Shown: one piece after another, positions 1,155 through 29,600 of the stretch
Position numbering within the stretch: position 1 is the stretch's first letter
Layout of the letters: each line of letters starts with the position of its first letter
Origin: Macrostomum lignano
Lineage: Eukaryota
Assembly (NCBI GenBank): GCA_002269645.1
Contig: NIVC01000303.1
Location: 565,819 to 629,818 of the forward strand
DNA length: 64,000 nucleotides
Direction of reading: 5' to 3'
Translations under genes and position numbers: made by a program
The notes under the pieces: model-generated
Told to the model about the DNA's origin: nothing
Database searches by the model: none
The model's input: the letters and a program-made list of their open reading frames with translations, nothing else

Positions 1155-4100
1155 CTGCGCGTGTGACGGGGTGCATTGCTTCTAAGAGATGATAATTGAT
1201 CGGTAGTGATCAGTTGTAAGAACTTTAGTGTTGCTTCAAAACAGCTACATAGCAGAGTAACACAAAGGATAGGTGAGAGTGACACACAAATTGATAAGGG
1301 TAGTGTAAGCAGAAAAGCCAGCGAAACACGCAGATCTAAGAGAGTGACCCACGAAAATCTAAGAGACATGCAGATCTAAGAAAGTGACCCATACATAAGA
1401 GACTGGTACACGTAAGTGAGTGATGCACACGGATCTAGAAGTGGCACACATAAGAGAGTGACGCACATAAGAGAGTGACACTCGCAGGTCTAAGGTAGTG
1501 ACACACATAAGAGAGTGACACACAGAGTGACACACACGGATCTAAGAGTGACAAACATAAGAGTGACGCACACGGATCCAAGAGTGACACGCATAAGAGA
1601 GTGACGCACACGGATCTAAGAGTGACACGCATAAGAGAGTGACGCACACGGATCTGAGAGTGACACGCATAAGAGAGTGACACAGAGTGACGCACAGGGA
1701 TCTAAGAGTGACACGCATAAGAGAGTGACGCACAGGGATCTAAGAGTGACACGCATAAGAGAGTGACGCACACGGATCTAAGAGTGACACGCATAAGAGA
1801 GTGATGCACACGGATCTGAGAGTGACACGCATAAGAGAGTGATGCACACGGATCTAAGAGTGACACGCATAAGAGAGTGATGCACACGGATCTGAGAGTG
1901 ACATGCATAAGAGAGTGACACAGAGTGACGCACACGGATCTAAGAGTGACACGCATAAGAGAGTGATGCTCACGGATCTAAGAGTGACACGCATAAGAGA
2001 GTGACGCACACGGATCCAAGAGTGACACGCATAAGAGAGTGACGCACACGGATCTGAGAGTGACATGCATAAGAGAGTGACACAGAGTGACGCACACGGA
2101 TCTAAGAGTGACACGCATAAGAGAGTGATGCTCACGGATCTGAGAGTGACACGCATAAGAGAGTGATGCTCACGGATCTGAGAGTGACACGCATAAGAGA
2201 GTGACGCACACGGATCTAAGAGTGACACGCATAAGAGAGTGACGCACACGGATCTAAGAGTGACACGCATAAGAGAGTGATCCACACGGATCTGAGAGTG
2301 ACACGCATAAGAGAGTGATGCACACGGATCTAAGAGTGACACGCATAAGAGAGTGATGCTCACGGATCTAAGAGTGACACGCATAAGAGAGTGATGCACA
2401 CGGATCTGAGAGTGACACGCATAAGAGAGTGACGCACACGGATCTAAGAGTGACACGCATAAGAGAGTGACGCACACGGATCTGAGAGTGACATGCATAA
2501 GAGAGTGACACAGAGTGACGCACACGGATCTAAGAGTGACACGCATAAGAGAGTGATGCTCACGGATCTGAGAGTGACACGCATAAGAGAGTGACGCACA
2601 CGGATCTGAGAGTGACACGCATAAGAGAGTGATGCACACGGATCTAAGAGTGACACGCATAAGAGAGTGATGCACACGGATCTAAGAGTGACACGCATAA
2701 GAGAGTGATGCACACGGATCTAAGAGTGACACGCATAAGAGAGTGATGCTCACGGATCTAAGAGTGACACGCATAAGAGAGTGATGCACACGGATCTGAG
2801 AGTGACACGCATAAGAGAGTGACGCACACGGATCTAAGAGTGACACGCATAAGAGAGTGACGCACACGGATCTGAGAGTGACATGCATAAGAGAGTGACA
2901 CAGAGTGACGCACACGGATCTAAGAGTGACACGCATAAGAGAGTGATGCTCACGGATCTGAGAGTGACACGCATAAGAGAGTGACGCACACGGATCTGAG
3001 AGTGACACGCATAAGAGAGTGATGCACACGGATCTAAGAGTGACACGCATAAGAGAGTGATGCACACGGATCTAAGAGTGACACGCATAAGAGAGTGATG
3101 CACACGGATCTGAGAGTGACACGCATAAGAGAGTGACGCGCACGGATCTAAGAGTGACACGCATAAGAGAGTGATGCACACGGATCTGAGAGTGACACGC
3201 ATAAGAGAGTGACGCACACGGATCTAAGAGTGACACACACAAGAGAGTGACACAAACCTGCAGCCTTGGCCTCTCCTCCCCGCCAGAATTCTCCGACTCT
3301 CTTGAGCACACAAACAGATTGCCGCAATTCTCTGCACCCAGAAACGCATCATCGTCGATAATTTCAATGGCTAACATCCAGTTAGGCGCGTGATCTCTGA
3401 CGATCTCTTCCAGACTGGTTTCAACCGGCTTGTACAGCAGCAGGGACATGCTGCGTAGCAGGTCGCCAACCAGAGCGAAGTCGCCTTTAGTTTTGAGGTA
3501 CAAAGCGATGATGTTGTTAAAGTGGGAACATTCCAATCGGAGTTCCCGTTCGTTTTCGCTCCATTCGAATAGGCGGACGGAGCTGTTAACGCAGACCAGA
3601 AGGCGCTGGTTGAAGCAGCACATTGAGTAGGGCGCGCCTCGGATCTCCTTCTCAGCTACCTGGCAGGCGGGAAATTGGGGAGCTACTAGTGAGCTACAGC
3701 TGGCAATGATGGGGAATCTTTGCTTCAGAAAGAAGATTCTCTCAAATGGGGAATCCCAGCTTGGGGGAGATTCTATCAGATTAGGGAAATCCCAGCTTGG
3801 GGGAGATTCTATCAGATGAAGAAAATCCCAGCTTAGGGGAGATTCTATCAGATGGGAAAATCCCAGCTTGAGGGGGAGATTCTATCAGATGAGGGAAATC
3901 CCAGCTTGAGGGGGATTCTATCAGATGAGGGAAATCCCAGCTTGCGGGAGATTCTATCAGATGAGGGAAATCCCAGCTTGTGGGAGATTCTATCAGATGA
4001 GGGAAATCCCAGCTTGTGGGAGATTCTATCAGATGAGGGAAATCCCAGCTTGTGGAAGATTCTATCAGATGAGGGAAATCCCAGCTTGAGGGGGAGATTC

Positions 4101-7100
4101 TATCAGATGAGGGAAATCCCAGCTTGAAGGGGAGATTCTCTCAAATAGGGAAATCTGGAAAAATACGCTCGTAGTACACAAAAAGTTTAGGTAAATAGCA
4201 GAATCATTACCTTAGTAAGATAAGGACTATCCGCGGTATACTGCAGCATTAGCAACCTCCCAGCAGACGGTTCAGACTCATTAGGCCGTATATAGCAGGT
4301 GCCAACTACGAAATAGGTGGCGCAATCGGTGCCAAACTGGCCAGAGGTGATACTAGTGGCAGTCTCAACGCAGCTCGGATTCGATGGAAACTGCATCGAG
4401 CAGAGCGGTTGCAAAGAATTCTGTTCTAGCACTACTACAGAGGTCACTTCGAGTTCTTCATCAACTTCGGCTGATGAGGCTGCGGCGACGGCGGCAGCAG
4501 CGGCGGCGGAAGCTACGGTGGCAGCGGCGCCGACCATCCCGGATGCGTGCGCATGATGCCGCTTGCCGGCAGCTGTGGCGGCTCCATCCGGGGTGAGCTG
4601 GATCGGGGCAGTGACAGAGACAGAGGTTCTGGCCGGAGCGTAGCCGCCTTCGTGGCGCAGATCAACCCGGGAGGTCACCACGGCAAGGGTGCCGGACTCG
4701 GGTTGGTGAGCCACTTTTCTAGCGGATTCGCCTAGCGGTACAGTGCGAATGTGCAGCTTCTGCATGTCGTCTATGGTGCCGAATAGTAACTGGCTGTTGG
4801 TTACTAGGCAGATGCACTGTTGCGGCTGCTGGGCATCGATAGATGCTGCTGATAGTAGTATAGGGCACACGTAATTCACTTGGCGGGTGTTCACGTGGGA
4901 GATTACCTGGTTGAAGGATTTGATCATTTCTGTTTTTTATGATAGGGATATACTCAGGTGAGTAATAGGGATATACTCAGGTGAGTGATTAGGATATACT
5001 CAGGTGGGTGATAGGGATAGACTCAGGTGAGTGATAGGGATAGACTCAGGTGAGTGATAGGGATAGACTCAGGTGAGTGATAGGGATAGACTCAGGTGAG
5101 TGATAGGGATATACTCAGGTGAGTGATAGGGATAGACTCAGGTGAGTGATAGGGATAGACTCAGGTGAGTGATAGGGATAGACTCAGGTGGGTGATAGGG
5201 ATATACTCAGGTGAGTGATAGGGATATACTCAGGTGAGTGATAGGGATATACTCAGGTGAGTGATAGGGATAGACTCAGGTGAGTGATAGGGATATACTC
5301 AGGTGGGTGATAGGGATAGACTCAGGTGAGTGATAGGGATAGACTCAGGTGAGTGATAGGGATAGACTCAGGTGGGTGATAGGGATATACTCAGGTGAGT
5401 GATAGGGATATACTCAGGTGAGTGATAGGGATAGACTCAGGTGAGTGATAGGGATATACTAGGTGATGAGTGGGGATACCCTCAAGTGATGGGTGAGAAT
5501 ATTTTCAGCTGAGAAGTGGAAACATTCACAGATGATGGGTGGGGATAGGGGATATACTCAGGTGATGGGTGGGGATAAATAGTAAAAACTCACCAGCTTC
5601 CCCGAAACGCAATGAGCAATGGCTGGTCTGTCAGTGCAGACAAACAAACTCTGAGAAGGCAGCCAGCACAATCCCATAGGTTGAGTACCAATAATCACGT
5701 GCTTCCTATTAACCAGAGCGGGCCCGGGTACAACGGTAAAGTACACCATTGTGCCGTCCCCGATGCCAACGAATAGATAAACACCGCAGGGCATTGTGGC
5801 CAGGACTATGGAGCGCGGAATGATCTGCAACAGAGATTGGAGTGGAATGAATAGAGATAAATCTAATAGGTCAACATGACACACCTGCATATAGATCTAA
5901 TGGGTCAACATACTGCATAGATCTAATGGGTCATCATACTGCAGATAGATCTAATGGATCAACATACTGCAGATGGATCTAATGGGTCATCATACTGCAG
6001 ATGGATCTAATGGGTCAACATACTGCAGATAGATCTAATGGGTCAACATACTGCAGATAGATCTAATGGGTCATCATACTGCAGATGGATCTAATGGGTC
6101 ATCATACTGCAGATAGATCTAATGGGTCATCATACTGCAGATAGATCTAATGGGTCAACATACTACAGATAGATCTAATGGGTCATCATACTGCAGATAG
6201 ATCTAATGGGTCAACATACTGCAGATAGATCTAATGGGTCATCATACTGCATAGATCTAATGGGTCATCATACTACAGATAGATCTAATGGGTCATCATA
6301 CTGCAGATAGATCTAATGGGTCAACATACTGCAGATAAATCTAAGCAGGTCAAAAACACAAACCTGAACGCCAAGCGGTTCCACGCAGACCTCCTCAAGA
6401 TTTCTCAGCCGCAGCAGTCGCACAGAGATCTCAACCCACAGGCCAACAGCCACAATACCGCCACCATCATCAAATCCGTCTGGCAATGGCGTGGCATCGA
6501 TGCAGGCCACTTCGTTTGGCAGCTCGCGCTCGGCTAGCACAGTCAAAGTGCCTTCGCCAATCGCTAGACAGGTGAGCTGTCGGCCAATAGCTATTAGCAG
6601 GTGACGCTGTCCGGCTCCGCAAACGGACACTGTCCGACCAGATGGTGGCAGCCATTCAGCTAATCGACGCTTGCCAGTGGAATCCAATAGGCGAGCGGAC
6701 TGCGGCGTGACCTGAGATTTTAAAGAAATTTAATTTTGGTTAATTTATTCATAATGCGCTACTAATAAAATATTTAATAAGTAGTGTAGTGTGGAAATAA
6801 ACTGCAAAAATATTTGAAAATTCTATACTTGCTACTTAAACAAAGGTAAGTAGTACAGTAAAGGACAGAGATAAAATTTGCGAAGTTCTATTTTGTGTAT
6901 GAGACTACTAAGGGATTCCGTATGTGTTGATTTTGGAGGTGGGGTGGGTGTCAACCCTCCTCGCCTCTCATTGGCTGGCGCCCCGATCACTAGGTGATCG
7001 ATACCCGTATCGATATCGGCGCTCGGCGCGCGCGCGCCGCAGGCGCGTGGCGCCAAGCGCCGTCCAGCCGCAGGCGACCCTCCCGAGCCACCGGCGACCC

Positions 7101-10100
7101 TCCCCAGCCGCAGGCGCACCTACCGATATTAGATCCCAATAAATCAATCAGATCCCAAATCAATCAGATCCCAAATCAATCAGATCCCAAGCGCACCCTC
7201 CCGAGCCGCAGGCGCCCATGCAGCAGGCGCCCCTCCCCGCCGCACGCGCCCTCCCCCGACATGTATGCCGCAGGCGCCCTCCCCGTCTCAGGCGCCCCTC
7301 CCGATATGTATGCGCACTCTCCCTATATGTACACCGATATGTATGCAGCAGGCGCCCGAGTGTACACTCCCCCGATATGTGTGTACACCGATATGTAGTC
7401 ATCGATACGGGCCTCTTCCCCTCTCTCACCTACATCTCAACTAGCGAAATCGAACCCAGGTCGCGCCCATACTAGGACACTACACGGTTGTGGGGTATAG
7501 GGAGCGAGAAGTTTCAACCCTAACGCTGACGCAGCCCTGTACAGTGAGAGTGTACGGGCAGAGAGGGGTGGCGCGGACAGAGAACCAGCCACTAGGTTGT
7601 TATACTGTTGAAGCATAGGGAGCGAGAAGTTTTAACCCCGATGCTGACGCAGCCCTGTACACTGAGCGTGTACGGGCAGAGGGTGGGTGGAAAGAGATGT
7701 GAATAACACAGCCTGCTGCAGGAGCCGGATAGAGAGGCGCATGCTAGGACAGAGAGGTAGTGTGAGTCACACACACCCCACAGAGAAAGCCATACAGAGG
7801 ATAGAGAGCTCCCTCCCCAGTTGCAGGGGACAGAGAGGCAGGCAGGGTATGCAGGGGCATGCGAACCGTCAAGGGGCCACGCGAGGATAGAGTGGAGGAG
7901 CAGAGATGTGTTTGGACAGAGAGCCAGCCACGTGTGCGTAGTGTGAGGGAACAGAAACATATGGAGCAGGAGGGAGATAGGAAGCAAACGCGCAGGGTAA
8001 GGGAGCCACACAGGGCGGTACAGTGAGACACGGGCAGGGGTGGAGCCGTGCGTGGACAGAGCTGAACGGCACGGTCAGCTGCAGGAATAGGATGATAGAG
8101 AGGCGCGGAGGGGGACAGAGAGCAGTGTGCAGGGGTAGGCAGCCACGCAGGCTGGGGAACAGAGAGGCGCGTGTCAGCCAGTTGCAGCCCGGGACAGAGA
8201 AGTATGAAGGGGGGCCTGGGACAGAGTTCCGAGCAAGGCACAGAGGTAGGGTCCTGTAGCTATGTATAGGCAGGGAGCCACGCGAGGGCAGGACAGGGGA
8301 GCAGACATGCAAGTTGCATGCAAGGCCAGAGAGGTGTGCGCGGAGGGAGACAGAGAGCAGTGTGTAGGGGTAGGTAACAGCAAACTTTAGTAGCGGCGCG
8401 TGCGGGGACGGAGAAACCAGTCAGAGCATACAGAGACGTTACAGAGAGGTACACAAGCAGAGACCAAAGCGAGCAGAGCACATGTGTAGGGACAGAGACG
8501 TGAGGGAGAATCGACCAAAACACGCTATGTATTTTCAAAAGTTGGTTTTAGTGCAACATGTTTAATAGTGGGTAGTATAATAGTATGTACATAGTAGGTA
8601 TAATAGTAGTAATAATAGTAAGCATATTAGCCCAAAAGGTAGACTAAAACAGGCTAAACTGTGTGTACGCATCCTCATCACCCCACAAGCCCCCTCTCCC
8701 GCCAGACTCACTCTACCAAACCCTCCTGTATTGCTGCATGAAGGAAAATATAGTGTAAAAATACAGATCTTAACCGTCAGACCGCTGAAATCAGGGCACA
8801 CTAGAGGGGGTTTCGGGGTCTGCATGCTCTATGTAAGCTGCTTGAGGAGGTTCCAAGGGCGTTGTGAGGGTTTCCATTATGTTTTGAAAAAAACTAGAGG
8901 CTTAAATACAACGTTTTATTCAAAAGTAGGTTATTTTAATGAAATAGCTGACACAATCATTGTCGAGAGTAGAAATTTTTATAAGAAACCAGGCATTTTA
9001 GCAAAAATAAACCTTCAAACCACATAAAATTGAATAAAAAGCAGACATTTTCAATTATAAACCGCAAGTATTTTAATAGAAAAGTAAGCAAACAAGGCAC
9101 AAAACCAGCAAATTTTACCTTTTTATTTTAATGTTACTGATAAGGTAGAGAGTAGAAACTTGTGAGCTGTACGGAGTTAGAAAGTATTAACCATTATGTA
9201 TCGTATGAATTATTAGTTCAGTACCAGCCATTGGTCAAGCGAGCATTTATGAAGTTATTACGAGTGATGAAGGGATAGAGAGCTATATACAGGAAGACAG
9301 TATCCTTCTAAACCACCACGAACAGATTGCTAATAGAGATAAGCTTTGTCTGTGTGCAGTATGAGTAAGCGAAGGCGGGGCAAATACTTTTCCACATGCC
9401 GGACAGAACAGTATTGTGCTAGGATTTCTCTCGAAATCGCGGTACGTTACTAGTTTTTATCACACCATCCAGATGCGTCAACTAGTCAGCAGTAGTCATT
9501 TATATGTTATTAGAACTTACAAACCCAGGTCAAGTAAATATTACAAAGAGTATATTACGTACACACACCAACTCCGAATACCAAGCCATACTAGTCTACT
9601 TGCAGTGCTCCTGGAGGGAAGGGACGGCGGGGTGTACATCCGGCAGGGTGGGCGTCCAGCGAGTGTACATCTGACAGGATGGGTGTTCAGCAAGTGTACA
9701 TCTGACAGGGTGGGCGTTCAGCAAGTGTACCTTCAGCGTCGAGTAGGTGTACACCCGTCAGTGGGAACTCAGCCCCTCCCACCAATGTCGTGTGCATGCG
9801 GTTAGTCAGTATAGTGGTGGGGTAGACGGTGCAGGAAGGAAACCCAGATGCTGACGCTGCCCTGTACAGCGAGCAACCAGCCCTCCTGTAGCAGGAGGGG
9901 GACAGAGAGTGCGTGGAGGCAGTAGGAGATAGAGGACGCTACCCGGCATGTCGCAGCACGCGGCGCGGGACAGAGAGGCAGTGTGTAAGTCACCCCCACA
10001 GGGAGAGCTGCCCTGGCAGGAGGCGCGGGACAGAGAGGCGGTGAATCACACCCCACGGAGAGAGCCGTACAGCGAGCTTCCCCACCCGAGTCCGGTAAAT

Positions 10101-11508
10101 ATTACAGAGTATTACGTGCACACGCCAGCCCTGAATACCAAGCCATACTAGTCTACCTGCAGTGCTCCCAGAGGGAAGGGATGGTCAGGAGTTACACACC
10201 AAGAATGCATTCATACAAAGAGTACACAACTCGAGCCCAGACACCAAGTCACAGTCTACTTACAGTAGAGATGGTAGATTAATAGCAAGATTATATTACA
10301 ATTAGACCTCCCTAGCACATGAGGAGTGAAATTCAATAATAATTGAATTCAATAATAATACAACATTTAGACGTAGTAATTTAATTACAAAATACCACTA
10401 ACACTGAGCCAACGAATTGTAGGTTACAAAGGAGTTGCCACTCATATGGAAAGCCAGTATAATGCAGGTGTATATTATTAAAACATAGACAAAAACGATG
10501 CAGACGTATATACACACTATTGATTTTGTACATGTACATTTCGGCATATTACCACACATCGCAGGCACATATTATATATCGGGGGATAGGTTAAAATACA
10601 CACATCGTAGATGTAGAAGCAGACACAATGCAGGAAAATTATGATACGAGTGTACATATTAGTGCGTAAAAGTATCATATTATGACACCCTGTAGCACAT
10701 ATTGACATAATGCAGGGGAAAATATTGACAGAAATAGTACACAATTGTAGAGGTAACAACCCGCCAACTAGTAAGGACATCCAGCACTTGTTCAGGTTTT
10801 TATTATTTCGAGACGAGTGTCATGCCCCCGCAAGAGATCTTATCAGAAATTTGTTGAACTCCACTGCAACTCTCCCCAGAGCCTCCAAATGTGAGTTTTT
10901 AACCCAGGGTCGAGTACAAAGGACCCGCCCACTCTTAACCCCAAGGGGTGATCGTAGCGGAGACCAAGTACAGTGCGGACGGAGAGGGGTAACAGAAAGC
11001 GCTGCATCAGACCGCAGGGCTGCATTCCTCCCCGAGGTAGGCGCGTCAGCTCCCACTCCTCATTTAACCATCAAGTAAACTAAAGAAGTCAAGCAGAAAG
11101 CCTTACAATCACCCGCAACCAGCACAAGTAAGAGTACTTTCCACTAGAGAGCCATAGTGCAAGATTCGCGAGCCAAGTTGAAGAAGCACACCAAATTACA
11201 CTAAAGACATATGTATTAAAAAGCATACCGGCACCTCTACAAAAACACAGTATGTACCGATTAAAGTTGCTTTTGGTGCAGTGTATTTAATAAAAAGCAG
11301 GTACCTAACACAAAAGTAGGCATCAATGCAGTGCACGGACTAAACTGTATTTACAAACGCAGGGCAACGAACTACACACAATGTAGCGCATAGACATAAT
11401 TGTACGCATAAATGTACGCAATTTCCGGTATATAGGACCACATGTACGCAAATGTACACAATGTACACAAACAAACACACACACACACAAACACACACAC
11501 ACAACACA

Positions 11509-11543
<35 letters not shown>

Positions 11544-11634
11544 CCTCAGGCGTATTCACAGCAAGAGCTTCCTGCCGATGGCGCCATCGCCTGCGGCGAT
11601 CGGCGCTGCAGGATGCGCTCTGCGGGATGCGCCT

Positions 11635-11685
<51 letters not shown>

Positions 11686-14600
11686 TGTTTGTGTGTGTGT
11701 GTTTGTGTTTGTGTGTGTGTGTTTGTTTGTGTACATTGTGTACATTTGCGTACATGTGGTCCTATATACCGGAAATTGCGTACATTTATGCGTACAATTA
11801 TGTCTATGCGCTACATTGTGTGTAGTTCGTTGCCCTGCGTTTGTAAATACAGTTTAGTCCGTGCACTGCATTGATGCCTACTTTTGTGTTAGGTACCTGC
11901 TTTTTATTAAATACACTGCACCAAAAGCAACTTTAATCGGTACATACTGTGTTTTTGTAGAGGTGCCGGTATGCTTTTTAATACATATGTCTTTAGTGTA
12001 ATTTGGTGTGCTTCTTCAACTTGGCTCGCGAATCTTGCACTATGGCTCTCTAGTGGAAAGTACTCTTACTTGTGCTGGTTGCGGGTGATTGTAAGGCTTT
12101 CTGCTTGACTTCTTTAGTTTACTTGATGGTTAAATGAGGAGTGGGAGCTGACGCGCCTACCTCGGGGAGGAATGCAGCCCTGCGGTCTGATGCAGCGCTT
12201 TCTGTTACCCCTCTCCGTCCGCACTGTACTTGGTCTCCGCTACGATCACCCCTTGGGGTTAAGAGTGGGCGGGTCCTTTGTACTCGACCCTGGGTTAAAA
12301 ACTCACATTTGGAGGCTCTGGGGAGAGTTGCAGTGGAGTTCAACAAATTTCTGATAAGATCTCTTGCGGGGGCATGACACTCGTCTCGAAATAATAAAAA
12401 CCTGAACAAGTGCTGGATGTCCTTACTAGTTGGCGGGTTGTTACCTCTACAATTGTGTACTATTTCTGTCAATATTTTCCCCTGCATTATGTCAATATGT
12501 GCTACAGGGTGTCATAATATGATACTTTTACGCACTAATATGTACACTCGTATCATAATTTTCCTGCATTGTGTCTGCTTCTACATCTACGATGTGTGTA
12601 TTTTAACCTATCCCCCGATATATAATATGTGCCTGCGATGTGTGGTAATATGCCGAAATGTACATGTACAAAATCAATAGTGTGTATATACGTCTGCATC
12701 GTTTTTGTCTATGTTTTAATAATATACACCTGCATTATACTGGCTTTCCATATGAGTGGCAACTCCTTTGTAACCTACAATTCGTTGGCTCAGTGTTAGT
12801 GGTATTTTGTAATTAAATTACTACGTCTAAATGTTGTATTATTATTGAATTCAATTATTATTGAATTTCACTCCTCATGTGCTAGGGAGGTCTAATTGTA
12901 ATATAATCTTGCTATTAATCTACCATCTCTACTGTAAGTAGACTGTGACTTGGTGTCTGGGCTCGAGTTGTGTACTCTTTGTATGAATGCATTCTTGGTG
13001 TGTAACTCCTGACCATCCCTTCCCTCTGGGAGCACTGCAGGTAGACTAGTATGGCTTGGTATTCAGGGCTGGCGTGTGCACGTAATACTCTGTAATATTT
13101 ACCGGACTCGGGTGGGGAAGCTCGCTGTACGGCTCTCTCCGTGGGGTGTGATTCACCGCCTCTCTGTCCCGCGCCTCCTGCCAGGGCAGCTCTCCCTGTG
13201 GGGGTGACTTACACACTGCCTCTCTGTCCCGCGCCGCGTGCTGCGACATGCCGGGTAGCGTCCTCTATCTCCTACTGCCTCCACGCACTCTCTGTCCCCC
13301 TCCTGCTACAGGAGGGCTGGTTGCTCGCTGTACAGGGCAGCGTCAGCATCTGGGTTTCCTTCCTGCACCGTCTACCCCACCACTATACTGACTAACCGCA
13401 TGCACACGACATTGGTGGGAGGGGCTGAGTTCCCACTGACGGGTGTACACCTACTCGACGCTGAAGGTACACTTGCTGAACGCCCACCCTGTCAGATGTA
13501 CACTTGCTGAACACCCATCCTGTCAGATGTACACTCGCTGGACGCCCACCCTGCCGGATGTACACCCCGCCGTCCCTTCCCTCCAGGAGCACTGCAAGTA
13601 GACTAGTATGGCTTGGTATTCGGAGTTGGTGTGTGTACGTAATATACTCTTTGTAATATTTACTTGACCTGGGTTTGTAAGTTCTAATAACATATAAATG
13701 ACTACTGCTGACTAGTTGACGCATCTGGATGGTGTGATAAAAACTAGTAACGTACCGCGATTTCGAGAGAAATCCTAGCACAATACTGTTCTGTCCGGCA
13801 TGTGGAAAAGTATTTGCCCCGCCTTCGCTTACTCATACTGCACACAGACAAAGCTTATCTCTATTAGCAATCTGTTCGTGGTGGTTTAGAAGGATACTGT
13901 CTTCCTGTATATAGCTCTCTATCCCTTCATCACTCGTAATAACTTCATAAATGCTCGCTTGACCAATGGCTGGTACTGAACTAATAATTCATACGATACA
14001 TAATGGTTAATACTTTCTAACTCCGTACAGCTCACAAGTTTCTACTCTCTACCTTATCAGTAACATTAAAATAAAAAGGTAAAATTTGCTGGTTTTGTGC
14101 CTTGTTTGCTTACTTTTCTATTAAAATACTTGCGGTTTATAATTGAAAATGTCTGCTTTTTATTCAATTTTATGTGGTTTGAAGGTTTATTTTTGCTAAA
14201 ATGCCTGGTTTCTTATAAAAATTTCTACTCTCGACAATGATTGTGTCAGCTATTTCATTAAAATAACCTACTTTTGAATAAAACGTTGTATTTAAGCCTC
14301 TAGTTTTTTTCAAAACATAATGGAAACCCTCACAACGCCCTTGGAACCTCCTCAAGCAGCTTACATAGAGCATGCAGACCCCGAAACCCCTCTAGTGTGC
14401 CCTGATTTCAGCGGTCTGACGGTTAAGATCTGTATTTTTACACTATATTTTCCTTCATGCAGCAATACAGGAGGGTTTGGTAGAGTGAGTCTGGCGGGAG
14501 AGGGGGCTTGTGGGGTGATGAGGATGCGTACACACAGTTTAGCCTGTTTTAGTCTACCTTTTGGGCTAATATGCTTACTATTATTACTACTATTATACCT

Positions 14601-17600
14601 ACTATGTACATACTATTATACTACCCACTATTAAACATGTTGCACTAAAACCAACTTTTGAAAATACATAGCGTGTTTTGGTCGATTCTCCCTCACGTCT
14701 CTGTCCCTACACATGTGCTCTGCTCGCTTTGGTCTCTGCTTGTGTACCTCTCTGTAACGTCTCTGTATGCTCTGACTGGTTTCTCCGTCCCCGCACGCGC
14801 CGCTACTAAAGTTTGCTGTTACCTACCCCTACACACTGCTCTCTGTCTCCCTCCGCGCACACCTCTCTGGCCTTGCATGCAACTTGCATGTCTGCTCCCC
14901 TGTCCTGCCCTCGCGTGGCTCCCTGCCTATACATAGCTACAGGACCCTACCTCTGTGCCTTGCTCGGAACTCTGTCCCAGGCCCCCCTTCATACTTCTCT
15001 GTCCCGGGCTGCAACTGGCTGACACGCGCCTCTCTGTTCCCCAGCCTGCGTGGCTGCCTACCCCTGCACACTGCTCTCTGTCCCCCTCCGCGCCTCTCTA
15101 TCATCCTATTCCTGCAGCTGACCGTGCCGTTCAGCTCTGTCCACGCACGGCTCCACCCCTGCCCGTGTCTCACTGTACCGCCCTGTGTGGCTCCCTTACC
15201 CTGCGCGTTTGCTTCCTATCTCCCTCCTGCTCCATATGTTTCTGTTCCCTCACACTACGCACACGTGGCTGGCTCTCTGTCCAAACACATCTCTGCTCCT
15301 CCACTCTATCCTCGCGTGGCCCCTTGACGGTTCGCATGCCCCTGCATACCCTGCCTGCCTCTCTGTCCCCTGCAACTGGGGAGGGAGCTCTCTATCCTCT
15401 GTATGGCTTTCTCTGTGGGGTGTGTGTGACTCACACTACCTCTCTGTCCTAGCATGCGCCTCTCTATCCGGCTCCTGCAGCAGGCTGTGTTATTCACATC
15501 TCTTTCCACCCACCCTCTGCCCGTACACGCTCAGTGTACAGGGCTGCGTCAGCATCGGGGTTAAAACTTCTCGCTCCCTATGCTTCAACAGTATAACAAC
15601 CTAGTGGCTGGTTCTCTGTCCGCGCCACCCCTCTCTGCCCGTACACTCTCACTGTACAGGGCTGCGTCAGCGTTAGGGTTGAAACTTCTCGCTCCCTATA
15701 CCCCACAACCGTGTAGTGTCCTAGTATGGGCGCGACCTGGGTTCGATTTCGCTAGTTGAGATGTAGGTGAGAGAGGGGAAGAGGCCCGTATCGATGACTA
15801 CATATCGGTGTACACACATATCGGGGGAGTGTACACTCGGGCGCCTGCTGCATACATATCGGTGTACATATAGGGAGAGTGCGCATACATATCGGGAGGG
15901 GCGCCTGAGACGGGGAGGGCGCCTGCGGCATACATGTCGGGGAGGGCGCGTGCGGCGGGGAGGGGCGCCTGCTGCATGGGCGCCTGCGGCTCGGGAGGGT
16001 GCGCTTGGGATCTGATTGATTTGGGATCTGATTGATTTGGGATCTGATTGATTTATTGGGATCTAATATCGGTAGGTGCGCCTGCGGCTGGGGAGGGTCG
16101 CCGGTGGCTCGGGAGGGTCGCCTGCGGCTGGACGGCGCTTGGCGCCACGCGCCTGCGGCGCGCGCGCGCCGAGCGCCGATATCGATACGGGTATCGATCA
16201 CCTAGTGATCGGGGCGCCAGCCAATGAGAGGCGAGGAGGGTTGACACCCACCCCACCTCCAAAATCAACACATACGGAATCCCTTAGTAGTTATGAGGAC
16301 TAGTACAAGAGCCCCCTTAAGGGGAATGTACTTGATCTCGTACTATATAGTTTTGTAAGTGGCTATTAACTGCAAGCAAAATTTTATGAAAATTAAAAAA
16401 ATCAAGTAGACAAAAGCAATCTGTTTGATTCTGTACACTCTTTGTACGAATTCGTGTGTGAGTTGAAAGCTCAGTGAAATGGCCATAACGGCTCCCCGTT
16501 GGAAAAGTTATGCACCTGCAGAGGCATAAAAGGTGAACGAGGTGCACAAAAGAGGCACTTTGGTGGTCTATTTCGTGTGTGTTTTGGAAATGCACCTGAG
16601 TGCACCTTTTATGCCTAAATGTCACCAATATTTTTGAAAAGAGGCATGAAAGGTGTAAAATAGGTGAAGTGGTCAGGCAGTAGGTGAATTCTCAATTTTG
16701 ATTGGTTGCGGCGGTAGGGGCAGTAAAGGTGTATAAGGGGCACTGGAGGTGCGCAAAAGGTGAAGAGTAGGCTCACAAGTGAGGCACATCAGGTGCACCA
16801 GAGGTGCTGAAGGGGCGCAGAAAGCGCGTGAAAGGTGAATTAGAGGTGCATAAGGTGTACATATGCGGCGTAAATATGTATACAGGTGCATTTCCAAAAC
16901 ACGCTCGAAATTATAGACCCCTAAAGTGCCTCTTCTGTGCACCTCGCTCACCTTTCATGCCTATGCACGAATATTAACGCATTAAGAATTCGTAACAAAA
17001 AATTAACTGAGAGTTACATATATGCTAATCGCTGTTATCCCCTTCCTAATCCTGACAAACCACGAAAAAACATTTCCAAAACTGATCACCTTTCGTGCCT
17101 CCAGTGCACACTGTACACCTTTTCTGCACCTCCACCGCAGCACACCTTTTTTCACCTTTCACTCCTCCAATGCCCCCAATTCCTATTTTATTCACCTTTT
17201 GTGCCTCAACGCACACTGTGCACCTTTTATGCACCTAACTCACCTATGACACCTGTGCCCCTACCGCCTATTTCGTGCCTTAAATTCACCTTCCGCCCCT
17301 GCAGAGGCACTCAGGTGAACAAAAGGTGCACAAGTGGCATAAAAAAGGCATAGGAGAGGCCAAAGTGAGGCAGAAGGTGCAAAACTCTTCACCTTTTATG
17401 CCTACTTTAAAAACTCAAAATCCAACGGGCTCGCCTCTTAATCTGAGGCGGTGCCCTAAACGCCCCCTCCCCCAGCAACTAAGAAGATTAATGATTCTCA
17501 TTACCTGAACAATCTGTCCGCCAAGAACATTCTGGCACAGGTAGGTGCGCTCGGCAGTTTCAAATGCGGGCATTGGCACCTCTTCAATCTCCATAGCCGG

Positions 17601-23600: not shown

Positions 23601-26600
23601 AACATAGAAAAGAAGATCGAATCAACAAGACAGGCCAAGATAGGCGCGGCCTACTAGGCCTAATGGTTGCCGCTTTACTGTATAATTGAAGAGTAAAAGG
23701 CCTAGTAAACGTCTAATTTAATTTAATTGTAAATAAGTACAATTACGAGTATTGTAACTGTAAGTAATACGAGCAAAGCCAAAGGCACAATATAAAATTT
23801 AATAATATGACTACAATAATATACATTTAGTAAAACCCTTATTAGAAAAGAAACAGATATATGCTAGGCTATAGGCCTAGGCCCTATCAGAACGGGGAAA
23901 TTTCAAAGATCTGACAAATTATATGATGGTAGGACGGAGAACTATACAAGGCGGTGAAGAGTCGCCTACTCCCAGATATATTAATAGACAAATGCAGAGA
24001 GGCGCCCTTAATACATGTAGATTGATGGACAGAAGCAGTTAGAGAGGCGCCCTTCATACATGTAGATTGATGGACAGAAGCAGTTAGAGAGGCGCCCTTC
24101 ATACATGTAGATTGATGGACAGAAACAGTTAGAGAGGCGCCCTTCATACATGTAGATTGATGGACAGAAGCAGTTAGAGAGCGCCCTTGATCCAAGTAGA
24201 TTGATAGACAGAAGCAGTTAGAGAGGCGCCATTCATACATGTAGATTGATAGACAGAAGCAGTTAGAGAGGCGCCCTTCATACATGTAGATTGATAGACA
24301 GAAGCAGTTAGAGAGGCGCCCTTCATACATGTAGATTGATAGACAGAAGCAGTTAGAGAGGCGCCCTTCATACATGTAGATTGATAGACAGAAGCAGTTA
24401 GAGAGGCGCCCTTCATACATGTAGATTGATGGAAAGAATTCGCAGTTAGAGAGGCGCCCTTCATACAAGTAGATTGATGGACAGAATTCGCAGTTAGAGA
24501 GGCGCCATTCATACATGTAGATTGATGGACAGAAGCAGTTAGAGAGGCGCCCTTCATACATGTAGATTGATGGACAGAAGCAGTTAGAGAGGCGCCCTTC
24601 ATACATGTAGATTGATAGACAGAAGCAGTTAGAGAGGCGCCCTTCATACATGTAGATTGATAGACAGAAGCAGTTAGAGAGGCGCCATTCATACATGTAG
24701 ATTGATAGACAGAAGCAGTTAGAGAGGCGCCCTTCATACAAGTAGATTGATGGACAGAATTCGCAGTTAGAGAGGCGCCATTCATACATGTAGATTGATG
24801 GACAGAATTCGCAGTTAGAGAGGCGCCCTTCATACATGTAGATTGATGGACAGAAGCAGTTAGAGAGGCGCCCTTCATACATGTAGATTGATGCAGGACA
24901 GAAGCAGTTAGAGAGGCGCCCTTCATACAAGTAGATTGATGGACAGAAGCAGTTAGAGAGGCGCCCTTCATACATGTAGATTGATGGACGGAAGCAGTTA
25001 GAGAGGCGCCCTTCATACATGTAGATTGATGGACGGAAGCAGTTAGAGAGGCGCCCTTCATACATGTAGATTGATGGACAGAAGCAGTTAGAGAGGCGCC
25101 CTTCATACATGTAGATTGATGGACAGAAGCAGTTAGAGAGGCACCCTTCATACATGTAGATTGATGGACAGAAGCAGTTAGAGAGGCGCCCTTCATACAT
25201 GTAGATTGATGGACAGAAGCAGTTAGAGAGGCGCCCTTCATACATGTAGATTGATGGACAGAAGCAGTTAGAGAGGCGCCCTTCATACATGTAGATTGAT
25301 AGACAGAAGCAGTTAGAGAGGCGCCCTTGATCCAAGTAGATTGATAGACAGAAGCAGTTAGAGAGGCGCCCTTGATCCAAGTAGATTGATAGACAGAAGC
25401 AGTTAGAGAGGCGCCCTTCATACAAGTAGATTGATGGACAGAATTCGCAGTTAGAGAGGCGCCCTTCATACATGTAGATTGATGGACAGAAGCAGTTAGA
25501 GAGGCGCCCTTGATCCAAGTAGATTGATAGACAGAAGCAGTTAGAGAGGCGCCCTTGATCCAAGTAGATTGATAGACAGAAGCAGTTAGAGAGGCGCCCT
25601 TCATACATGTAGATTGATGGACAGAAGCAGTTAGAGAGGCGCCCTTGATCCAAGTAGATTGATAGACAGAAGCAGTTAGAGAGGCGCCCTTGATCCAAGT
25701 AGATTGATAGACAGAAGCAGTTAGAGAGGCGCCCTTCATACAAGTAGATTGATGGACAGAATTCGCAGTTAGAGAGGCGCCCTTCATACATGTAGATTGA
25801 TGGACAGAAGCAGTTAGAGAGGCGCCCTTCATACATGTAGATTGATAGACAGAAGCAGTTAGAGAGGCGCCATTCATACATGTAGATTGATAGACAGAAG
25901 CAGTTAGAGAGGCGCCCTTCATACATGTAGATTGATGGACAGATGCAGTTAGAGAGGCGCCCTTCATACATGTAGATTGATGGACAGAAGCAGTTAGAGA
26001 GGCGCCCTTGATCCAAGTAGATTGATAGACAGAAGCAGTTAGAGAGGCGCCCTTGATCCAAGTAGATTGATAGACAGAAGCAGTTAGAGAGGCACCCTTG
26101 ATCCAAGTAGATTGATAGACAGAAGCAGTTAGAGAGGCGCCCTTGATCCAAGTAGATTGATAGACAGAAGCAGTTAGAGAGGCACCCTTGATCCAAGTAG
26201 ATTGATAGACAGAAGCAGTTAGAGAGGCACCCTTGATCCAAGTAGATTGATAGACAGAAGCAGTTAGAGAGGCGCCCTTGATCCAAGTAGATTGTTAGAC
26301 AGAAGCAGTTAGAGAGGCACCCTTGATCCAAGTAGATTGATAGACAGACTCCCTGTAAGCCTGTTTTTTGAAAATTGAATGGAAAATAGGTTTGATATTA
26401 TTGTAAAAGTTTAATGTACTTTACCTTAAAAGCTGGTTGTCAATTGATAGGCGTTACTCAAGAGCTTTACTACAGCTAGATATATTTCCAAAATGGCCTA
26501 AATGATAACAAGACTTGGATAAATACTCAGGGCCTAGCCTTTTTAGAGCTAGCCTATGCCTAGTTTTAAAGCTGGCCTGTAGTGAGGAAATACTAGGCCT

Positions 26601-29600
26601 ACCAATGTAAGAGTCAGCCTACTTGAGCTGTGGGATTTCAAACCAGCCAATAGGAACCAGACCGCGAATTTTTACTCTTGGATGACTAACGCGAATTCTC
26701 ACATTCACATGCCACAGCCAGGCTCCATATCCTTATTTTTGCGCAGAACTAGGACCATTGCGCGTACGTCGGCCTAGGCCTCATCAATACAACCAGTGGC
26801 GGCGCCAAGTTGGGGGCAGAGAGGGCTGCTGCCCCCGGGTGACCACCCTCCTAAGACCACCCTACCATCCTTCCGTGGGGTGACCCACCATTAGTTTTTT
26901 AGCGCTCGTAGTATGCGTTTTTGTGAGATTATAGCGTATACTCTAATTTTAAAAATTCGCTGAGGGAGGGGTTTGAAAACCCAACCACCGCCCCTCCCCC
27001 TTAATCCACAGAATTTACCTTAATCAGCATCGCCGCCACTGCGCACCGCCAAGGCTGCACCGCCACTAAATAGAACCAACATTAATGGGCATATCGAAAG
27101 AAAATATACATTTGGCCTATCGGAAATTTCAGTCACTAGGGCCTAAAGCAAAACGTAGGCCTATAGTACTCGTATAGGCCTAAAACACCTTGTTTAAAGA
27201 TTAGTAATTGAAGATACATATCTACATAACTTAATAAACTCTAATTTGTACCTAAACTCCTAATTTTCTCCGAGAACTCATCCTAGATTTATGGCTATCA
27301 ATTACTAACTACCGTAATTAGCCCTAATTGGTTGTTCTGGTCAATTACGCGAAAGAGCGAAAGAGCGAAATGGTTTCTGTATTTTAAAGTTAAAATGCTG
27401 AGCTAGGCCAAACTCAGCTCATTCTGAATTCATGATAGACTCAGGTGCTGGGATACACAGAGACAGTTAGAGAAGGAATCAGCCGGTTTGATGAAGATTA
27501 TAGCGGCTCTCAAGTCCTCTGTGTTTGAGTGAAAATGCTGAGCTAGGCCAAACTCAGCTCATTCTGAATTCATGATAGACTCAGGTGCTGGGATACACAG
27601 AGACAGTTAGAGAAGGAATCAGCCGGTTTGATGAAGATTATAGCGGCTCTCAAGTCCTCTCTGTGTTTGAGTGAAAATGCTGAGCTAGGCCAAACTCAGC
27701 TCATTCTGAATTCATGATAGACTCAGGTGCTGGGATACACAGAGACAGTTAGAGAAGGAATCAGCCGGTTTGATGAAGATTATAGCGGCTCTCAAGTCCT
27801 CTCTGTGTTTGAGTGAAAATGCTGAGCTAGGCCAAACTCAGCTCATTCTGAATTCATGATAGACTCAGGTGCTGGGATACACAGAGACAGTTAGAGAAGG
27901 AATCAGCCGGTTTGATGAAGATTATAGCGGCTCTCAAGTCCTCTCTGTGTTTGAGTGAAAATGCTGAGCTAGGCCAAACTCAGCTCATTCTGAATTCATG
28001 ATAGACTCAGGTGCTGGGATACACAGAGACAGTTAGAGAAGGAATCAGCCGGTTTGATGAAGATTATAGCGGCTCTCAAGTCCTCTCTGTGTTTGAGTGA
28101 AAATGCTGAGCTAGGCCAAACTCAGCTCATTCTGAATTCATGATAGACTCAGGTGCTGGGATACACAGAGACAGTTAGAGAAGGAATCAGCCGGTTTGAT
28201 GAAGATTATAGCGGCTCTCAAGTCCTCTCTGTGTTTGAGTGAAAATGCTGAGCTAGGCCAAACTCAGCTCATTCTGAATTCATGATAGACTCAGGTGCTG
28301 GGATACACAGAGACAGTTAGAGAAGGAATCAGCCGGTTTGATGAAGATTATAGCGGCTCTCAAGTCCTCTCTGTGTTTGAGTGAAAATGCTGAGCTAGGC
28401 CAAACTCAGCTCATTCTGAATTCATGATAGACTCAGGTGCTGGGACACACAGAGACAGTTAGAGAAGGAATCAGCCGGTTTGATGAAGATTATAGCGGCT
28501 CTCAAGTCCTCTCTGTGTTTGAGTGAAAATGCTGAGCTAGGCCAAACTCAGCTCATTCTGAATTCATGATAGACTCAGGTGCTGGGATACACAGAGACAG
28601 TTAGAGAAGGAATCAGCCGGTTTGATGAAGATTATAGCGGCTCTCAAGTCCTCTCTGTGTTTGAGTGAAAATGCTGAGCTAGGCCAAACTCAGCTCATTC
28701 TGAATTCATGATAGACTCAGGTGCTGGGATACACAGAGACAGTTAGAGAAGGAATCAGCCGGTTTGATGAAGATTATAGCGGCTCTCAAGTCCTCTCTGT
28801 GTTTGAGTGAAAATGCTGAGCTAGGCCAAACTCAGCTCATTCTGAATTCATGATAGACTCAGGTGCTGGGATACACAGAGACAGTTAGAGAAGGAATCAG
28901 CCGGTTTGATGAAGATTATAGCGGCTCTCAAGTCCTCTCTGTGTTTGAGTGAAAATGCTGAGCTAGGCCAAACTCAGCTCATTCTGAATTCATGATAGAC
29001 TCAGGTGCTGGGACACACAGAGACAGTTAGAGAAGGAATCAGCCGGTTTGATGAAGATTATAGCGGCTCTCAAGTCCTCTCTGTGTTTGAGTGAAAATGC
29101 TGAGCTAGGCCAAACTCAGCTCATTCTGAATTCATGATAGACTCAGGTGCTGGGATACACAGAGACAGTTAGAGAAGGAATCAGCCGGTTTGATGAAGAT
29201 TATAGCGGCTCTCAAGTCCTCTCTGTGTTTGAGTGAAAATGCTGAGCTAGGCCAAACTCAGCTCATTCTGAATTCATGATAGACTCAGGTGCTGGGATAC
29301 ACAGAGACAGTTAGAGAAGGAATCAGCCGGTTTGATGAAGATTATAGCGGCTCTCAAGTCCTCTCTGTGTTTGAGTGAAAATGCTGAGCTAGGCCAAACT
29401 CAGCTCATTCTGAATTCATGATAGACTCAGGTGCTGGGATACACAGAGACAGTTAGAGAAGGAATCAGCCGGTTTGATGAAGATTATAGCGGCTCTCAAG
29501 TCCTCTCTGTGTTTGAGTGAAAATGCTGAGCTAGGCCAAACTCAGCTCATTCTGAATTCATGATAGACTCAGGTGCTGGGATACACAGAGACAGTTAGAG

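Follow-up and report, generated by a model that had tools for sequence, protein, structure and literature searches.

The palindromic element at positions 6904–16291 of the window (the whole stretch analysed, 64,000 nucleotides of the Macrostomum lignano contig NIVC01000303.1) is probably a non-coding satellite, hereafter class P, of a bipartite Maverick/Polinton whose genes are divided between two segments, classes B and C. The observations behind this assignment are ends common to the three classes, gene sets carried separately, 6-bp duplications and common terminal blocks. No published report of a split Maverick with a palindromic satellite was found in the literature. The features of the element and its flanks are as follows.

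6349–6714, minus strand: host DDB1 exon adjoining the insertion; the element lies in the neighbouring intron
6898–6903, plus strand: left copy of the duplication, TATGAG, present as a single copy in the empty site of L149
6904–11487, plus strand: left arm, non-coding by arm comparison and ORF check
6904–6910, plus strand: terminal ACTACTA repeat, common to classes B and C; putative slide-back initiation site and integrase end
6904–7233, plus strand: stretch also present at the beginning of the class B (pPolB segment) terminal repeat, 89–96% identity
6911–6928, plus strand: hypervariable 18-nt terminal block, with the same sequence at the two ends of the element
9628–10044, plus strand: remnant of the terminal repeat of class C (integrase/capsid segment), 73–88% identity, in pieces
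11465–11539, plus strand: (CA)n tract, its length differing between copies and between arms
11543–11637, plus strand: conserved non-palindromic centre, folding as an imperfect hairpin
11637–11732, plus strand: (TG)n tract mirroring the (CA)n tract
11710–16291, minus strand: right arm, reverse complement of the left arm
13153–13569, minus strand: class C repeat remnant, mirror copy of 9628–10044 by symmetry
16267–16284, minus strand: 18-nt terminal block, mirror copy
16292–16297, plus strand: right copy of the duplication, TATGAG

The element is 9,388 bp long, has the termini 5'-ACTACTA...TAGTAGT-3' and lies between the two copies of TATGAG that an earlier, sequence-only reading had reported. 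The same reading described a perfect palindrome whose arms differ by two one-base indels. The arms are indeed near-identical: aligned over 4,544 bp they show 0 substitutions and 2 gaps, the one-base indels at 7253 and 8806, and their symmetry is exact up to 11487/11710. The palindrome is not, however, perfect in its middle: a (CA)n tract of 71 nt and a (TG)n tract of 93 nt enclose a non-palindromic 95-bp spacer (11543–11637). Folded as DNA, this centre gave z −3.9 on the plus strand and −2.25 on the other strand; changes among the copies were too few for covariation. On the left flank, an ORF at 6313–6729 (minus strand) matched DDB1 (best E 1.4e-17). Contigs from three of three RNA-like runs, none of the listed runs being recorded as RNA, left the window at 6715 and did not cover 6738–6906, which places the insertion site in a DDB1 intron, as had been proposed. 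Insertion as a unit, also proposed earlier, is borne out by the duplication and by an empty site: contig C4518 (L149) has both flanks joined by one TATGAG. Contig C3287 (L150) also crosses the insertion site.

The arm is devoid of genes, in agreement with the sequence-only reading. None of its six longer frames had a Pfam match, none of the seven ATG-initiated ORFs of at least 70 codons was intact throughout 24 other copies (homopolymer errors may inflate the number of breaks), and six-frame comparison with classes B and C revealed no coding match; a coding function of the arm was rejected on these three grounds. The search for RNA genes with Rfam gave just a microsatellite match, below the gathering score. 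Contigs from the three RNA-like runs covered most of the arm without GT-AG joints, but a multicopy element can appear in such data via DNA carry-over, whether expressed or not. Read depth in one run of unrecorded kind was 419–1335 over the arm and 16 over the flank, which fits integrated copies and does not indicate a large free pool.

Other palindromic copies with different 6-bp duplications, for which the earlier reading had suggested a search, were found in number. The genome contains 46 matches to the conserved 95-bp hairpin centre, and 21 independent class P insertions have both ends and their own 6-bp duplication, which indicates that class P is a long-lived lineage and not a one-off fold-back. 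The insertions measure 8.1–9.4 kb, five of the 21 being shorter or rearranged, and copies L029, L032 and L033 have central deletions. Sub-lineages are 2–4% apart, the arms within each copy are near-identical, and all full copies have one common centre, which has been kept between lineages 4% apart. The match of the arm to class B is confined to its first ~330 bp and that to class C to arm positions ~2725–3141, leaving ~85% of the arm with no traced source; the interiors of B and C do not match. Class P has neither pPolB nor integrase, but it has its ends in common with partners that encode enzymes, and we infer that it is mobilised in trans by them.

These partners have the same ends and encode pPolB, integrase, ATPase, capsid and also a protease, so that the suspected Maverick link is real, although the single autonomous helper of 15–25 kb that had been envisaged was replaced by two elements of ~9.5 and ~10.5 kb. 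Class B comprises ten loci of 9.38–9.71 kb with terminal repeats of ~850–940 bp. It carries a pPolB (PF03175 match) with GT-AG introns, their motifs having been checked in ten copies, of which L034 and L099 are not counted, and a PC4-like gene, and lacks integrase and capsid; the integrase, capsid and ATPase of a canonical Maverick had no match in either of the two copies tested. Class C carries an integrase, a double-jelly-roll capsid, a protease and an ATPase and lacks pPolB, a gene content taken from the one element read end to end, C150 (duplication TACAAC, rve E 2e-9, no polymerase). Its ATPase matched that of a canonical Maverick (E 3e-21), and the protease-like ORF had a weak C48 match (E 0.073). 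The capsid matched an F54H12.2-like protein and the canonical Maverick from the same genome, and its predicted fold, modelled from seven sequences with a mean pLDDT of 61.7 (the single-sequence model, pLDDT 34.6, was unusable), matched the double jelly rolls of PBCV-1, Sputnik and mavirus (E 3e-13). Among 17 paired class C ends, 16 enclose a capsid match and 14 span 10.35–10.74 kb; two spans, C4 and C2210, are 3.4 kb longer, with interiors outside the sequence read. None of P, B and C has pPolB and integrase on one element, and the gene sets of B and C complement each other on separate molecules whose termini match, as in segmented viruses. The genome search with PF21738 found other capsid groups and not class C, that with the rve family was flooded by long retrotransposon-type frames and was uninformative, and a viral contig collection contained no relative.

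A diverged sister family appears to be split likewise and has a long-armed, apparently non-coding satellite of its own. Its polymerase is 63–65% and its capsid 82–88% identical to those of the main family, and the layout of the ends is the same (two 2.5-kb right ends of its capsid class, C', were read). The satellite measures 7.6 kb, its arms are 99.8% identical over at least 2.1 kb, and the centre piece read has no ORF above 91 codons.

These data bear on the proposal that a full-length ACT-ended Maverick, whether exogenous, unassembled or unscored, gave rise to B, C and P as defective derivatives, or that all three borrow the enzymes of AGTAGT Mavericks, with no obligate bipartite system. 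Intact canonical AGTAGT Mavericks of 16.8 and 17.5 kb do occur in this genome and could lend enzymes, and most relatives of the class C capsid are monopartite: polymerase, integrase and ATPase occur together at 18 of 27 metagenome loci of at least 7 kb. No B-type polymerase match fell within C or C' spans (0 of 66), although the candidate lists were scored in part (66 of the 225 candidates for polymerase and 98 of the 451 for capsid) and a rare full-length element could fall outside. We nevertheless regard this proposal as unlikely. The terminal repeats of B and C diverge after ~32 nt, unlike two deletions from one parent; the long frames of both have been kept open in many copies, with 15 capsid matches 99–100% identical over their full length; the sister family appears to be split too; the polymerases of class B and of the C114 Maverick could not be aligned (best E 0.92); and the AGTAGT elements have no DNA similarity to the ACT family.

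The ends common to P, B and C have the form ACTACTA-N18-GATTTTG. In the genome, 158 ends of B/P type and 46 of C type were detected (controls, 0), and 34 of the 35 two-ended P/B loci have an exact 6-bp duplication. The 18-nt block (end positions 8–25) is hypervariable and recombined: three exact 18-mers are present on all of B, C and P, different blocks occur on bodies 0.0% apart over 1,363 bp, and 103 of 153 site pairs fail the four-gamete test. Block and body distances are weakly correlated (Mantel r 0.46 for B and 0.21 for P, p about 0.02), and exchange of the block is thus not free. Mismatched blocks at the two ends were observed in 6 of 18 C elements and in none of 31 B/P elements (Fisher p 0.0013), whereas for B and C alone (0 of 10 vs 6 of 18) the difference was not significant (p 0.06); both mismatched-end C elements checked, C150 and C633, have an intact duplication. 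The idea, derived from L029 and the window, that the block is copied from or matches the target site was rejected (32 elements, p 0.16 by both measures).

From these sequences we propose the following mechanism, including co-replication and packaging. Class B would supply the protein-primed polymerase and the PC4-like protein, and class C the rve integrase, capsid proteins, protease and packaging ATPase. The B polymerase would start at the ACTACT repeat and displace one strand; the displaced P strand would fold back on itself as a 4.6-kb stem, with the conserved hairpin at its closed end, rebuilding a duplex origin, and copying round the hairpin loop would restore the P duplex and keep its arms identical. 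The C integrase would insert P. The closeness in size of P to B and C points to packaging of P, an argument weakened by the five shorter or rearranged insertions. Recombination or end repair would exchange the 18-nt block between molecules that replicate together, and the block would in this way record which of them had met; its most likely role is that of a tag, either for origin specificity or for escape under conflict. A broader reading, which we advance tentatively and with slightly less than even confidence, is that of a segmented integrating double-jelly-roll animal virus, with two co-transmitted Maverick segments, two sister lineages each with a long-armed non-coding satellite, and the recombining 18-nt tag, next to the start of replication, as a lock-and-key contested by segments and satellites.

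That P is a giant foldback or cut-and-paste element moved solely by integrase, its arms being kept alike by chromosomal gene conversion and not by polymerase-driven replication, seems improbable to us. P does carry everything required by an integrase, palindromes in chromosomes can undergo extrusion and repair, and central deletions occur, as mentioned above. Foldback (FB) elements and giant non-autonomous TIR transposons also resemble P in being gene-less, in their very long inverted arms and, presumably, in their mobilisation in trans. However, the partners of P are of Maverick type, and no DDE transposase element with ACTACTA ends was seen among the loci read (100 of the 158 ends covered). 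Moreover, blocks have passed between P and its partners B and C at distant loci, with the bodies remaining distinct, and free molecules undergoing replication would allow this more easily; lineages 4% apart have kept the hairpin centre; and the terminal tandem repeat is of a type linked to protein-primed initiation in the available text of PMC8097293.

The sequence-only reading had explained the palindrome by snap-back of a helper end. As the origin of class P this is plausible, but the arm is collinear with a helper end only for the ~330 bp in common with B. That each palindrome is a fresh snap-back fixed on integration is very improbable: as a mechanism for every copy it is contradicted by the single centre of all full copies, by the single arm, collinear with neither B nor C, and by the diverged sub-lineages, and it would account for one origin only. 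The system nonetheless appears capable of mirror derivatives, as C1313, a 14.4-kb span with an interior outside the sequence read, has the same terminal block at both ends, flanks matching at 5 of 6 positions and inverted capsid matches 1,914 and 1,915 bp from its ends. Finally, an assembly or long-read chimera artefact is extremely improbable, for although inverted duplications are a known long-read artefact and no record spans the stretch in a comparison confined to the left arm, duplications are exact at 34 of 35 loci, an empty allele exists, lineage-specific variants are copied symmetrically and 63–85% of the arm's words occur in 20 runs from 7 studies.

The bipartite system with its satellite, our preferred reading, resembles Mavericks/Polintons (Polintoviricetes; adintoviruses) in its 6-bp duplication, terminal inverted repeats and short tandem end repeat, and B and C together have their pPolB, rve integrase, ATPase, protease and major and minor capsid genes. 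In contrast to Mavericks, polymerase and integrase are on two elements, and class P has no genes. P (8.1–9.4 kb), B (9.4–9.7 kb) and C (mostly 10.35–10.74 kb) are each smaller than intact vertebrate Mavericks, which the available text of PMC8097293 gives as 12.7–24.6 kb and describes as intronless, unlike the class B polymerase with its GT-AG introns; none reaches the ~13–25 kb expected of a Maverick. The ends begin with 5'-ACT as opposed to AGT, AG or AC in Mavericks. The suggestion that this start might indicate a distinct helper lineage or superfamily was not supported as stated: it inverts the published motif 5'-(AGT)2//(ACT)2-3' (same source), and marks the split family. Bidnaviruses and Drosophila Vesanto virus, according to the available portions of PMC8502044 and PMC8363768, are segmented; one segment has a pPolB derived from a Polinton, and the termini of all segments match. 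They are, however, ssDNA viruses with a parvovirus-type capsid and NS1, whereas the system described here has a double jelly roll, an rve integrase and integration with 6-bp duplications. No ORF for a bidnavirus-type capsid or NS1 helicase was found in B or C. Protein-primed linear plasmids of the pGKL type yield copy-back/snap-back, hairpin derivatives, which like P are gene-less and hairpin-capable, with two copies of one origin; unlike these, P is integrated, multicopy and long-lived, with a conserved centre and a mosaic of two helper repeats and untraced DNA. Bipartite begomoviruses, rolling-circle ssDNA plant viruses, have a common region, iterons and satellites, and their common region may be an analogue of the 18-nt block, as a short variable origin block on cognate components that is passed to captured molecules.

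Polintons are defined by polymerase and integrase on one molecule. A split system would escape screens that require all core genes within 20 kb, as described in the available part of PMC10748475. The split form may represent a route from Polintons to segmented viruses (bidnaviruses) and to polymerase-only linear plasmids, and suggests how the polymerase could be exchanged with the capsid module left in place; if the segmented-virus reading is true, a split-off polymerase would be a route to the polymerase swaps reported in Polintons. With a palindromic satellite and terminal tags, the long-standing but little-tested model in which elements excise, fold as panhandles and are copied by protein priming becomes checkable, as hairpin DNA, protein-capped ends and tag conversion can each be measured.

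The PDB sequence search with an exon of the class B polymerase, which carries a putative VSR-like insert, gave 0 matches. Many copies of these elements appear very young, and the polymerases in UniRef with 97–100% identity are labelled Macrostomum lignano, a flatworm maintained in laboratories. A 178-aa ORF of class B is homologous to the first ORF of the canonical Maverick (E 5e-9), and also to a protein that itself matches PC4 weakly.

The palindrome at 6904-16291 of the window had been described, in a sequence-only reading, as a gene-less and perfect palindrome that integrated as a unit within DDB1, and most of this description stands. TATGAG hexamers border the element and ACTACTA starts both of its ends, and contig C4518 has the insertion site unfilled, with a single TATGAG. 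The adjoining exon is that of DDB1, and three RNA-like runs yield contigs that leave the window by splicing at position 6715. The arms are nearly perfect, with 2 gaps but no substitution in 4,544 bp; the middle is asymmetric and has a 95-bp spacer between a (CA)n tract of 71 nt and a (TG)n tract of 93 nt. As single-stranded DNA, this spacer folds better than its shuffles (z -3.9 for the + strand and -2.25 for the other strand); in two other copies z was -4.05 and -6.01. Pfam matches were seen in 0 of 6 arm frames and 0 of 7 arm frames are kept across all copies, in line with the claimed absence of genes. At 16495-16900 of the window the right flank enters a second repeated element, whose interior shows inverted similarity and which is present in dozens of copies (90-98%). 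Long tandem arrays also occur in the surrounding DNA:

23996-26348, tandem array, period 45
27388-29909, tandem array, period 142
32506-36108, tandem array, period 26

The palindrome belongs to a real, young and multicopy class of non-coding elements (class P), and is not the accident of one fold-back. A genome search with its first 501 bp yielded 311 candidates and, among them, 40 scored matches. Other copies with their own 6-bp duplications, as predicted, were found: 35 of 41 loci were two-ended and 34 of these 35 had an exact duplication. After three repeats of the same site (loci L023, L030 and L031) were dropped, the insertions numbered 21 of class P, 10 of class B (polymerase-coding elements, see below) and one mini element; of those of class P, 16 retain all or nearly all of the palindrome and measure 8.1-9.4 kb, and the other 5 carry deletions or rearrangements. 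The centre motif, almost invariant among parsed copies, has 46 genome matches, haplotype repeats included (control, 0). Sub-lineages are 2-4% apart, yet the arms of most copies differ from each other by 0-12 substitutions (L092 has one block that is more diverged), which argues that the palindrome is passed on by descent and its symmetry maintained. Each arm starts with approximately 330 bp of the class B repeat, and pieces of the repeat of class C (integrase/capsid-coding elements) occupy arm positions 2725-3141; the rest of the arm matched nothing in the interiors of B and C.

At 32 insertion sites the duplications tend towards a target of the symmetric form N-(A/T)-Y-R-(A/T)-N. Mini elements of 0.15-1.4 kb with ACTACTA ends are also present, and a short ACTACTA-ended element (L091, C558:43471-53355) contains a tandem pair of LTR-retrotransposon-like sequence. 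Same-orientation centre motifs pair on single contigs at C1607:205874 and 205995 (121 bp apart) and at C261:128016 and 135725 (7.7 kb apart), and are possibly multimers.

A single autonomous helper of 15-25 kb had been anticipated; instead, polymerase (B) and integrase plus capsid (C) reside on separate elements. Class B elements (9.38-9.71 kb, terminal repeats of approximately 850-940 bp) encode a protein-primed polymerase (PF03175), the gene being split by GT-AG introns at shared places (e.g. L100, element positions ~4600-7750); all 8 copies that were read in the correct orientation have the donor and acceptor motifs of the second intron. The closest polymerases in UniRef are from Macrostomum lignano itself, and the nearest non-host relatives are merely 26-29% identical. 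A 178-aa ORF shares homology with the first ORF of a canonical (AGTAGT-ended) Maverick of the same genome (E 5e-9) and is PC4-like via a weak second-hand match; a 360-aa ORF was assigned to no family, and the two class B copies compared gave no match to the integrase, capsid or ATPase of the canonical Maverick.

Class C was discovered at contig C150, where an element of 11.9 kb, of which 1.4 kb is an internal repeat, was read end to end (TACAAC duplication, repeats of approximately 650 bp). Its genes, all on one strand, are Fic, small ORFs, an rve integrase (E 2e-9), capsid, a protease-like ORF and ATPase, and we read one further frame as putatively penton-like. The 443-aa capsid has a predicted double jelly roll fold and resembles F54H12.2-like protein. 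L154:835-1641 and 3177-3713 are the coordinates of the Fic-domain gene (E 7e-14) and of a TBP-like match, which is weak (E 1e-4) and lies narrowly under the cut-off. The class C end pattern matched 46 times, with both ends on 17 contigs; 16 of the 17 pairs enclose a capsid match and 14 span 10.35-10.74 kb. No polymerase was found in the C150 element, and C spans contain none of the 66 B-type polymerase matches (225 candidates, 66 of them scored). A full-length parent element behind the classes may nevertheless exist.

B, C and P share one terminal layout, ACTACTA followed by 18 variable bases (terminal positions 8-25) and GATTTTG; the search pattern itself prescribed positions 1-7 and 26-36, and their constancy is therefore no result. 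Among 86 ends (distinct by flank, haplotype repeats included) 41 different 18-mers were counted, and all four combinations occurred in 103 of 153 site pairs in a four-gamete test. Since copies with 0.0% body difference over 1,363 bp carry different blocks, and three exact 18-mers are common to B, C and P, blocks move between classes. A weak correlation of block with body distance remains, and exchange is not free. A mismatch of at least 3 bases between the two ends of an element was seen in 6 of 18 elements of class C and in none of 31 of classes B and P (p 0.0013; against B alone, p 0.06). Two such C elements keep exact duplications, so that insertion needs no matching ends. The idea that the block mirrors the target site was rejected (p 0.16).

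A diverged sister family appears to be split likewise, into polymerase (B') and capsid (C') segments, both with blocks from a second pool. Its polymerase is 63-65% identical to that of class B; capsid identity is 82-88%. B' ends, ACTAC-N20-GATTTTCAGAT, matched 29 times (control, 1), with uninterrupted spans of 9.6 and 9.9 kb, and C' ends of the same layout 72 times (control, 0); 23 of 27 C' end pairs, mostly 9.6-11 kb, enclose a capsid match. Element size and the absence of matches suggest that C' lacks a polymerase. A 7.6-kb element with sister-family ends has arms that are almost identical over at least 2.1 kb, and the piece of its centre that was read contains no long ORF. It lies at G000:C816:51991-59604 (L157-L161) with a GCTGTC duplication, has counterparts of equal size at C356 and C1588, and starts with the C' repeat, with sequence resembling DNA near a B' end also present (about half read). 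Its make-up appears to mirror that of P, where the B repeat comes first and C pieces follow. A 14.4-kb sister capsid span (G000:C1313:243594-257956) with two symmetrically placed inverted capsid genes is likely a palindromic derivative of a coding segment. At G000:C1485:44228-62496, a 9.6-kb B' element is nested in another B'-type end pair with a different block.

We consider class P to be, quite probably, a satellite without coding capacity, and the Maverick on which it depends is most likely bipartite. No single class answers to the definition of a Polinton; the gene set is complete only in B and C together. Metagenome relatives of the C capsid are mostly monopartite (polymerase in 18 of 27 loci of at least 7 kb) and the B polymerase could not be aligned with that of the C114-type canonical Maverick, and the two segments may therefore differ in ancestry. 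Likenesses exist to pGKL, begomoviruses and copy-back genomes. In the sources consulted (PMC8502044, PMC8363768), segmented pPolB viruses are known only as ssDNA bidnaviruses. A bipartite Maverick, a palindromic Maverick satellite and Macrostomum lignano Polintons were absent from the full-text literature searched, a scope outside which lie Repbase, Dfam, supplements and most subscription papers, so that earlier entries for single classes may exist.

At the sequence level, direct support extends to shared ends, complementary gene sets, integrase-type duplications, arm homogenisation and block exchange. The B polymerase would prime at the ACT repeat and displace one strand; terminal repeats permit jump-back initiation (PMC8097293). 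The displaced P strand would close to a 4.6-kb stem capped by the conserved hairpin, an origin would be rebuilt by this stem, and copying round the tip would regenerate a duplex with identical arms, to be inserted by the C integrase. A size similar to B and C hints that P is packaged, and a single early fold-back at a (CA)n/(TG)n pair is a plausible origin. Against this mechanism count the depth in one sequencing run, which fits integrated copies, and the short P derivatives.

Help could also come from canonical Mavericks. The search for pPolB in the genome gave 119 matches (91 of 974 candidates scored), and AGTAGT-ended elements, measuring 16.8 and 17.5 kb and belonging to two or more types, were observed (L106-L108, C114; L109-L111, C2506; L116-L119). 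A different element (L132 and L133, C67; L134 and L135, C3178) encodes a 463-aa PF21738 capsid, has ATPase and integrase-like frames and a putative frame that looks like a D5-type primase-helicase. In both copies one end is an imperfect hairpin of approximately 105 bp, which begins AGTAGTAGT and ends ACTACTACT, followed by unrelated DNA.
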